A stretch of 64,000 bases of DNA. Source: Escherichia coli. Lineage in GTDB: Bacteria > Pseudomonadota > Gammaproteobacteria > Enterobacterales > Enterobacteriaceae. A model generated the notes under the pieces. The model worked only from the letters and a program-made list of their open reading frames with translations. It was not told the origin of the DNA and did no database searches. Shown here in pieces: positions 16,136-17,855 of this stretch. Location of the stretch: assembly GCF_044324875.1 (NCBI RefSeq), contig NZ_CP172185.1; one strand, given 5' to 3'. Positions within the stretch are counted from its first letter, which is position 1. Each line of letters starts with the position of its first letter. Made by a program: the position numbers and the translations under genes.

Positions 16136-16260
16136 ATCACACATTTTATTACAAGGCAACAACTACCTTCAAGCTCTATGTTGAGCCTGTTTACCATTCT
16201 GTGTAATATGCATTTTCTTTAAAGTGACCGTCAGGACGGTCACTGATTACCCATTCTGAA

Positions 16261-17574
16261 GAGACTGTAATTAAAATTGTGTAATTGCCTGTTTTTGATA
16301 TGTTCACTCCAACAACGGAGACAGGCAAACGATGGACGAAAAGAAACTTAAAGTCCTTGCGGCTGAACTGGCCAAAGGCCTTAAAACCGAAGCCGACCTC
16401 AACCAGTTTTCACGCATGTTGACAAAGCTTACCGTCGAAACGGCGCTCAATGCAGAACTGACTGACCATCTAGGTCATGAGAAAAATGCTCCTAAATCAG
16501 GCTCTAATACCCGTAATGGCTACTCGTCAAAAACGGTATTGTGCGATGATGGCGAGATCGAACTTAACACGCCGCGTGACCGTGAAAATACCTTCGAACC
16601 ACAACTGGTGAAGAAAAATCAGACCCGCATTACCGGCATGGACAACCAGATCCTGGCGCTGTATGCCAGAGGGATGACTACCCGCGAAATTACCTCAGCC
16701 TTCAAAGAAATGTACGACGCCGATGTCTCGCCCACGCTGATATCCAAAGTGACCGATGCGGTTAAAGAACAGGTCTCTGAATGGCAAAACCGACCGTTGG
16801 ATGCACTGTATCCCATTGTTTATCTTGACTGTATTGTGGTTAAGGTTCGTCACAGCGGGAGTGTCATTAACAAAGCGGTGTTCCTCGCGCTGGGCATCAA
16901 TACCGACGGTCAGAAAGAGCTGCTGGATATGTGGCTGGCCGAAAATGAAGGTGCAAAGTTCTGGCTGAATGTACTGACGGAACTGAAAAATCGCGGCCTG
17001 AACGATATCCTTATCGCCTTCGTGGACGGCCTGAAAGGCTTCCCGGAAGCGATAAATAGCGTGTACCCGCAGACGCATATTCAGCTCTGCATCATCCATA
17101 TGGTGCGCAACAGCCTGAAATTCGTGTCGTGGAAGGATTACAAAGCCGTCACCAGCGGGCTGAAAGCGGTATATCAGGCCCCGACAGAGGAAACGGCGTT
17201 GATGGCGTTGGATAAGTTTGCAGGCGTCTGGGATGAAAAATACCCGCAAATCAGCAAGAGCTGGCGCACACACTGGGAAAATCTCAACACCTTCTTCGGT
17301 TACCCACCGGATATCCGCAAGGCCATCTACACGACGAATGCCATCGAATCGCTGAACAGTGTCATTCGGCAGGCGATAAAGAAGCGCAAGGTGTTCCCAA
17401 CGGACGACTCGGTGCGAAAAGTGATTTATCTGGCGATACAGTCGGCGTCAAAAAATGGAGTATGCCAATCCAGAACTGGCGGCTGGCAATGAGCCGTTTT
17501 ATTATCGAGTTCGGTGACCGCCTTAGCGAGCACCTTTAATACGGCGGCAGTTACACAGAATTATTTACAGGGTC
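16261..17574 (+). mobile_element. IS256-family insertion sequence (1314 bp) with 8-bp target-site duplication ATTCTGAA
   Basis: Imperfect terminal inverted repeats (gagactgtaattaaaattgtgtaattgcc / ggcagttacacagaattatttacagggtc); identical 8-bp direct repeats at 16253..16260 and 17575..17582. Confidence 0.85.
16332..17492 (+). CDS. IS256-family (mutator-type) transposase; extreme C-terminus shifted into another frame
   Basis: 386 aa with the IS256-type DDE layout; the expected C-terminal tail (...MPIQNWRLAMSRFIIEFGDRLSEHL) continues in a different frame to about 17538. Confidence 0.8.
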   Translation: MDEKKLKVLAAELAKGLKTEADLNQFSRMLTKLTVETALNAELTDHLGHEKNAPKSGSNTRNGYSSKTVLCDDGEIELNTPRDRENTFEPQLVKKNQTRITGMDNQILALYARGMTTREITSAFKEMYDADVSPTLISKVTDAVKEQVSEWQNRPLDALYPIVYLDCIVVKVRHSGSVINKAVFLALGINTDGQKELLDMWLAENEGAKFWLNVLTELKNRGLNDILIAFVDGLKGFPEAINSVYPQTHIQLCIIHMVRNSLKFVSWKDYKAVTSGLKAVYQAPTEETALMALDKFAGVWDEKYPQISKSWRTHWENLNTFFGYPPDIRKAIYTTNAIESLNSVIRQAIKKRKVFPTDDSVRKVIYLAIQSASKNGVCQSRTGGWQ

Positions 17575-17855
17575 ATTCTGAATTTAGTGCAGAATTAAAA
17601 TATGTGTTCAAAATAATTTAATTCAGACAGCTTTTTATTTCACTATGGCTATCCCAGAACAACCAGTACAAATAATAAAAGACATATCACAGCAACACTC
17701 CACACTGACAGCGCAAAAATAAATGCCGCCTTTGTTATCTTCATATACAAGCAACCTGTCCTGATAATCACCAACTCATGTTTTATTCTTAACCATTCGT
17801 CACAAATACAACAAAAAATAACAGCAGCAGCACCGATATCACAATATAAGATACA

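Follow-up and report, generated by a model that had tools for sequence, protein, structure and literature searches.

The window (the whole stretch of DNA that was analysed, 64 kb of an E. coli genome) carries an ISEc39-like insertion sequence of the IS256 family, which is flanked on both sides by the octamer ATTCTGAA and encodes a truncated transposase. Features of the element and of its left neighbourhood are collected in Table 1. The target is intergenic, ~270 bp past the 3' end of a sigma-like HTH regulator/YadA-like adhesin pair and 18 bp from the solo end of an older IS256-family element. The insertion lies downstream of the convergent regulator and adhesin genes, interrupts no open reading frame, and was probably neutral. 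A promoter and terminator scan of positions 16100-17900 returned sites no more numerous than in shuffles. The preliminary description had placed the insertion in older IS debris, and this was borne out by the ISL3 pseudogene, the IS481-family fragment and the solo IS256-family end.

Table 1. Features of the insertion and of the sequence to its left, with positions in the window, strand and basis of assignment
Feature	Position	Strand	Basis
Frameshifted ISL3-family transposase pseudogene with 18-bp tandem repeat	14438..15491	+	RefSeq annotation
IS481-family (ISEc18-like) integrase-core pseudogene fragment	15535..16141	+	RefSeq annotation of identical locus; matches named IS481/ISEc18
Solo right end (IRR + ~25 bp) of older, different IS256-family element	16183..16235	-	Alignment to C1-type remnant
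Left target-site duplication copy, ATTCTGAA	16253..16260	.	Same octamer at both tips; single in empty sites
ISEc39-like mosaic IS256-family insertion sequence, 1314 bp	16261..17574	+	Limits from alignment to ISEc39 copies
IRL, subterminal TGTAAT motif at 16266-16271	16261..16289	+	22/29 match to IRR
Truncated transposase ORF, 386 aa (374 native + 12 out-of-frame)	16332..17492	+	Profile matches, alignment to ISCth4 TnpA
A6 homopolymer, 1-bp deletion site (A7 in relatives), codon 375	17450..17455	+	Alignment to ISEc39; RefSeq 'frameshifted'
Displaced C-terminal coding remainder, -1 frame, KWSMPIQNWRLAMSRFIIEFGDRLSEHL	17453..17540	+	Stop 17538-17540; tblastn residues 374-402 at 17450-17536
IRR, TGTAAA on complementary strand, outward-facing TTTACA 17564-17569	17546..17574	-	22/29 match to IRL
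Right target-site duplication copy, ATTCTGAA	17575..17582	.	Perfect repeat of left copy

The junctions read ...GATTACCC ATTCTGAA / GAGACTGTAATTAAAATTGTGTAATTGCC ... GGCAGTTACACAGAATTATTTACAGGGTC / ATTCTGAA TTTAGTG..., with slashes at the tips of the element. The terminal inverted repeats are 29 bp long and imperfect, and comparison of GAGACTGTAATTAAAATTGTGTAATTGCC with reverse-complemented GGCAGTTACACAGAATTATTTACAGGGTC gives 22 identities in 29 positions. Homology to two independent ISEc39 copies (L002, L003) starts at the first bases GAGACTG and stops at the last, CAGGGTC; this alignment gives the same limits, and the boundaries are therefore independent of how the repeats are read. Counted on both strands, ATTCTGAA occurs 4 times in the window against ~2.5 expected, about the level of shuffles, while the chance of the same octamer abutting both tips of the element is ~4^-8; octamer abundance does not explain its presence at both. 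No second copy of the element, nor any other IS256-type coding sequence, was found within the window.

For the empty site, both flanks were joined with one octamer and the query was searched in 5426 complete E. coli genomes. Hundreds of these run unbroken from the equivalent of 16183/16186 through the junction into the right flank. APEC O2-211 (L004) and strain 144 (L005) both have an uninterrupted ...CACTGATTACCCATTCTGAATTCAGTGCAG... with a single ATTCTGAA, so the repeat is a true target-site duplication. When the empty site was joined to the window's own left flank, 0 records were returned at a coverage of at least 80% among the same 5426 genomes. The inverted repeats, which the preliminary description had read from the letters, were reproducible on alignment with limits matched exactly by the ISEc39 copies, and its perfect 8-bp direct repeat was confirmed as a product of insertion.

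The solo end aligned, in reverse complement, with the right end of a different family member, the remnant present in strains C1 and W5-6 (C1/W5-6 type), at a local score of 50 (shuffles, 18.8 +/- 2.0). In these two strains the remnant lies at a locus that also has restriction endonuclease and H-NS-like genes. Homology to the empty-site genomes begins at the tip of this solo end, in three unrelated left contexts: the IS481 fragment in the window, a lysozyme-inhibitor gene in APEC O2-211 and a yaiO-like gene in strain 144. The solo end therefore marks an old IS-mediated breakpoint, at which the regulator/YadA-adhesin segment is bordered on its left. Transposase coding sequence flanking the insertion was sought with tblastn and blastn of the reconstructed empty site, which gave only a 24-nt repeat; when the C1-type remnant was aligned locally with higher sensitivity, the repeat grew to ~53 bp and no further. 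The regulator/adhesin segment was also considered as a composite unit. This was rejected, as the window holds no second match to the solo repeat (with up to 3 mismatches) and no other IS256-type coding sequence. In E. coli K-12 and B strains, a match of 76-83 bp (88-90%) to the right end of the element (17498-17580) is annotated within yjhR; it is another solo IS256-family end, here in laboratory strains.

Further variation was recorded around the insertion. The 18-bp tandem repeat of the ISL3 pseudogene (15111-15165) is read as IPYYRL or SRITGL, depending on frame, and the window has 36 extra repeat bases (15127-15162) relative to carriers with the same left context (L001, L009, L011). Between 15793 and 15956, seven SNPs are private to the window when compared with all seven other carriers examined, and six of them are packed into 33 bp (15924-15956) inside the IS481-family fragment; this cluster may be another small conversion patch, besides the one within the element that is described below. 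On the right, the YadA-like trimeric autotransporter (18373-19968, minus strand) has internal repeats of ~37 aa and is strain-variable in length, with annotated sizes of 1119-1542 bp among the carriers and empty-site genomes that were compared. Next to a 191-aa open reading frame (20694-21269) lies the gene of a collagen-like repeat protein of 498 aa (GPQGPKGETGERGPA...; 21284-22780, minus strand). Right of ~20.7 kb the context of the window differs from that of L001, a carrier whose element is 100% identical.

Assignment to the IS256 family, as first proposed, was upheld by profile matches, catalytic residues, ends and duplication. The translated product scored 382 bits (E=3.4e-114; cutoff 21) with Pfam PF00872, Transposase_mut, and 418 bits (cutoff 150) with NF033543, the IS256 equivalog of NCBIfam, and the element thus encodes a Mutator/IS256-type transposase. 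Over residues 18-397 the transposase aligned with ISCth4 TnpA, a family member of solved structure (6xg8), with E=7e-108. In this alignment the DDE triad D166/D232/E339 corresponds to D175/D241/E348 of ISCth4, and the CxxH motif of the alpha-helical insertion domain, C253/H256 (C/DxxH in the family), to C262/H265; ISCth4 numbering follows its paper, the 6xg8 chain having three extra N-terminal residues. All of these residues lie upstream of the frameshift. At codon 230 (17019-17021), two residues from the catalytic D232, the window has Phe where the relatives compared have Cys (IAFVDGL vs IACVDGL).

The ends are also of the family type. Terminal repeats in the family are imperfect and ~25-40 bp long, and those found here are 29 bp, with TGTAAT in IRL and TGTAAA in IRR; a subterminal TGTAAA motif has been described as an IS256-family feature (PMC7780238). 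The target duplication is A/T-rich and 8 bp long (sometimes 9 bp in the family), and A/T-rich 8-bp duplications have been observed for IS256-family members in vivo and in vitro (PMC7780238). The one departure is the coding sequence, since family members of 1.2-1.5 kb carry a single unbroken open reading frame of ~400 aa and the frame of this 1314-bp element is broken at codon 375. This marks a defective copy and does not exclude the element from the family. The TTTACA of IRR is -35-like, and the TGTAAT/TAAAAT of IRL is -10-like; in a circle with a 6-8-bp spacer, TTTACA and TGTAAT would be 16-18 bp apart and could form a junction promoter of the family type.

The break in the reading frame was located by comparison with ISEc39 copies, which read GCGTC AAAAAAA TGG where the window reads GCGTC AAAAAA TGG. 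The frame shifts after K374 and continues for 12 codons to a stop at 17490-17492. The preliminary description had reported a C-terminal frame change near codon 386; the change is real, but the lesion is at codon 375 and codon 386 is only the stop in the shifted frame, so that the region proposed for resequencing (17480-17540) was slightly off the A-run at 17450-17455. The best 120 of 7949 strong homologues, from Escherichia, Salmonella, Yersinia, Erwinia, Pectobacterium and Klebsiella, are all single open reading frames of 401-403 aa. In the alignment of intact, full-length relatives the lost tail hardly varies, and it is partly kept as far as ISCth4 (KW.M...NW.L).

The preliminary description had left it undecided between a true frameshift and a sequencing error. 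A homopolymer run is a classic site of sequencing or assembly error, and if the missing A were such an error, the element would be fully intact and active. However, 65 complete genomes of many laboratories and hosts have the identical A6, dozens of complete genomes of varied laboratory and host origin show 100% identity over the same 1330 bases, and ISEc39 copies from assembly projects of the same kinds have A7. Exactly this 386-aa product is encoded on 116 contigs, none of ~15 billion proteins has the repaired 402-aa sequence, and RefSeq marks the gene as a 'frameshifted' pseudogene in every carrier examined. Because the same A6 is shared across carriers, the 386-aa product recurs on 116 contigs and the repaired protein has never been seen, an error is excluded for practical purposes and its probability is negligible; A7 to A6 is a true mutation. 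The 386-aa transposase is filed in a 90%-identity cluster with the siderophore receptor CirA as representative, which looks like a clustering artefact.

The A-run might instead be a programmed site of -1 ribosomal frameshifting or transcriptional slippage, from which isoforms of 386 aa and 402 aa would be made as in the IS1 and IS3 families. The 0-frame A AAA AAT fits X XXY YYZ, the -1 frame restores the conserved tail exactly, and a stem-loop-like sequence lies downstream (17478-17498). This stem-loop is 22 nt from the slip site, however, and stimulators of -1 frameshifting are usually 5-9 nt away. A two-frame organisation with a slippery site conserved among relatives, as in the IS1/IS3 families, was not found: close relatives encode the tail in frame via A7 (the best 120 homologues being 401-403 aa), which makes a programmed frameshift very unlikely. 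Every copy, moreover, is at one locus with no sign of activity. Rare -1 slippage in the A6 context (A AAA AAT) could still restore the full-length protein.

The truncation leaves the DDE triad and CxxH in place, as well as the N-terminal parts for dimerisation and DNA binding. The catalytic domain of ISCth4 has limits of 325-407 (PMC7780238) and reaches residue 407, which puts the lost 28 residues in the RNase-H-like domain. For the repaired transposase, an AlphaFold2 model (10-sequence alignment; pLDDT 43, pTM 0.28) was too poor to be used for the role of the tail, and the argument was based on the ISCth4 domain limits and sequence conservation. A literature search on C-terminal truncation returned nothing usable, so the functional cost of the truncation is one that we infer. 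Judged from these sequences, the truncated transposase is probably inactive, and the copy is most likely immobile on its own. The element was thus called 'intact' too readily: its ends are complete, but its transposase is frameshifted and a pseudogene in RefSeq.

The element was found at 99% identity or more in 65 records among the 5426 complete E. coli genomes. When 550 bp of both flanks were included, 62 records remained; the left junction was recovered in 64 and the right junction in 65, and no copy of this variant was found at any second site in these genomes. Carriers fall into at least 3 flank haplotypes and include an O111:H8 strain and isolates from chicken, swine and human. One haplotype, which includes the O111:H8 strain, has a different structure left of ~15127 and a 3-bp deletion (17822-17824). 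Among the carriers compared, the element itself varies by at most 1 SNP (17087). The insertion is a single event, old enough to have been inherited or co-transferred, and not a strain-specific recent jump. The transposition had been described as 'recent', and this does not agree with an identical frameshifted insertion in 65 of 5426 genomes, on at least 3 flank haplotypes and at no other site.

The closest intact protein (P0016; 402 aa, 97% identity) is encoded at the same locus, with the same junctions, on three draft contigs (L006-L008); L007 and L008 probably come from a single isolate that was assembled twice, so two isolates are likely represented. The patch-allele isolates are recorded under GCA_050331795.1, GCA_025059695.1 and ERR8650789. 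The element of this patch allele is that of the window except at 17424-17497 (L006:2673-2749), where 24 bases are substituted and one is added, with the gene in frame. At all 25 diagnostic sites this stretch agrees with the IS256 remnant of the C1/W5-6 type, and outside it all diagnostic sites are of the window type up to 17416 and from 17519 onward. The Phe at codon 230 is also present in the patch allele. By the pattern of diagnostic sites, the patch is a gene-conversion tract of 74-102 bp, derived from another IS256-family remnant, that removes the frameshift. The contigs are short-read assemblies; with only ~15 nt shared at the left edge of the tract, a chimeric assembly is unlikely. Among the 5426 complete genomes the patch allele was absent, the best full-length match to a 101-bp patch query being 98%.

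The patch allele and one A6 carrier, L010, have in common the derived deletion of 3 bp (17822-17824) and the alternative left context, and A6 was found in all three flank haplogroups. As A6 occurs in three haplogroups and the patch allele only in the haplogroup of the L010 type, the simplest order suggested by these characters is frameshift first and conversion second, with the gene repaired; the linking characters are few, and one of them, the 3-bp indel, is located in a short repeat. The reverse order, in which the in-frame patch allele was ancestral and the window allele arose by conversion to the ISEc39 type followed by loss of one A, is in keeping with an intact 402-aa gene (P0016) at the same locus and with the need of the insertion for a functional transposase, although this could be supplied in trans. 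It would require two extra events and an unobserved donor, and it conflicts with the spread of A6 over three flank haplogroups, with the confinement of the patch allele to the haplogroup that has the derived deletion and the left context of L010, and with the identity of the patch to a dead IS256-family remnant at 25/25 diagnostic sites. It was considered unlikely. We lean towards later repair of the frameshifted transposase, in one sub-lineage, by a 74-102-bp conversion tract from a dead IS256-family 3' fragment elsewhere in the genome. If this is correct, decayed IS fragments would be a sequence reservoir able to resurrect defective copies. The patch is also a natural example of recombination between diverged IS copies, a process that accounts for the mosaic make-up of the element too.

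The history that we regard as very probable is that an ISEc39-like element inserted once at ATTCTGAA, later lost one A, and has been carried passively since. A single insertion of this IS256 member at the A/T-rich octamer would have followed the copy-out/paste-in route described for the IS256 family (PMC7780238), in which a circular intermediate would be joined to a target cut with an 8-bp stagger, and repair of the cuts would give the duplication. Loss of one A from the A7 run at codon 375 would have come after insertion and left the 386-aa product, and the defective copy would since have travelled with its chromosomal region. For annotation, the locus is best recorded as an ISEc39-like copy of the IS256 family that is defective and fixed at a single site of the chromosome, and not as an active recent mover. 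The element breaks no gene and carries no astA toxin frame. It is of a known kind and is already annotated as a pseudogene in RefSeq; as a shared, fixed insertion it can mark a lineage or island in the ~1% of complete E. coli genomes that have it.

Of the systems compared, ISEc39 is the closest. Copies named ISEc39 by RefSeq/PGAP, at the cdiA-pic locus and on plasmids, have identical terminal repeats and boundaries, the same length class (1314-1315 bp) and the same 402-aa transposase layout. Nucleotide identity over the whole length is 96.1% for chromosomal and plasmid copies, and the sequence around the frameshift site is identical save for the missing A. After in silico repair of both lesions, the transposases are 96.0% identical, with 16 substitutions including C230F. 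Isoforms are by ISfinder convention ~95% or more identical in nucleotides and ~98% or more in amino acids; against this convention the element stands at 96.1% and, after repair, 96.0%, the reference being copies that PGAP names ISEc39. Identity is uneven along the element, most 60-bp bins being 97-100% identical to ISEc39 and two patches (~16570-16730 and ~16930-17020) only 77-82%. These two patches do not match IS1414 either, and by this bin-wise comparison the element is a recombinant mosaic. In the copies between cdiA and pic (L002:2001-3316, L003) the lesion is another one, loss of 1 bp at codon 10, and no direct repeat flanks them; the commonest chromosomal copy of ISEc39 is thus defective as well.

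IS1414, in which astA, the gene of the EAST1 enterotoxin, overlaps the transposase gene in another frame, belongs to the same family and has the same layout and similar terminal repeats, with ~55-88% nucleotide identity in 60-bp bins along the element. The astA frame is intact in the IS1414 copy L013 (full MPSTQYIRRPASSYASCIWCATACASCHGRTTKPSLAT), whereas it is closed in the window: the astA-homologous region (17040-17170) reads ...SSIWCATA*NSC... in the alternative frame, with no start codon and with internal stops. An IS1414-type element with astA was accordingly rejected, the embedded open reading frame being closed in the window. The astA-homologous frame is closed in ISEc39 too. A distant comparison was with ISCth4/IS256, members studied structurally and biochemically (PDB 6xg8, PMC7780238), at ~40% identity as estimated by eye from the HMMER alignment. 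The two share the DDE and CxxH residues, an A/T-rich 8-bp duplication and a subterminal TGTAA(A/T); the window element differs in its Proteobacterial host and in the missing last 28 residues of the catalytic domain.
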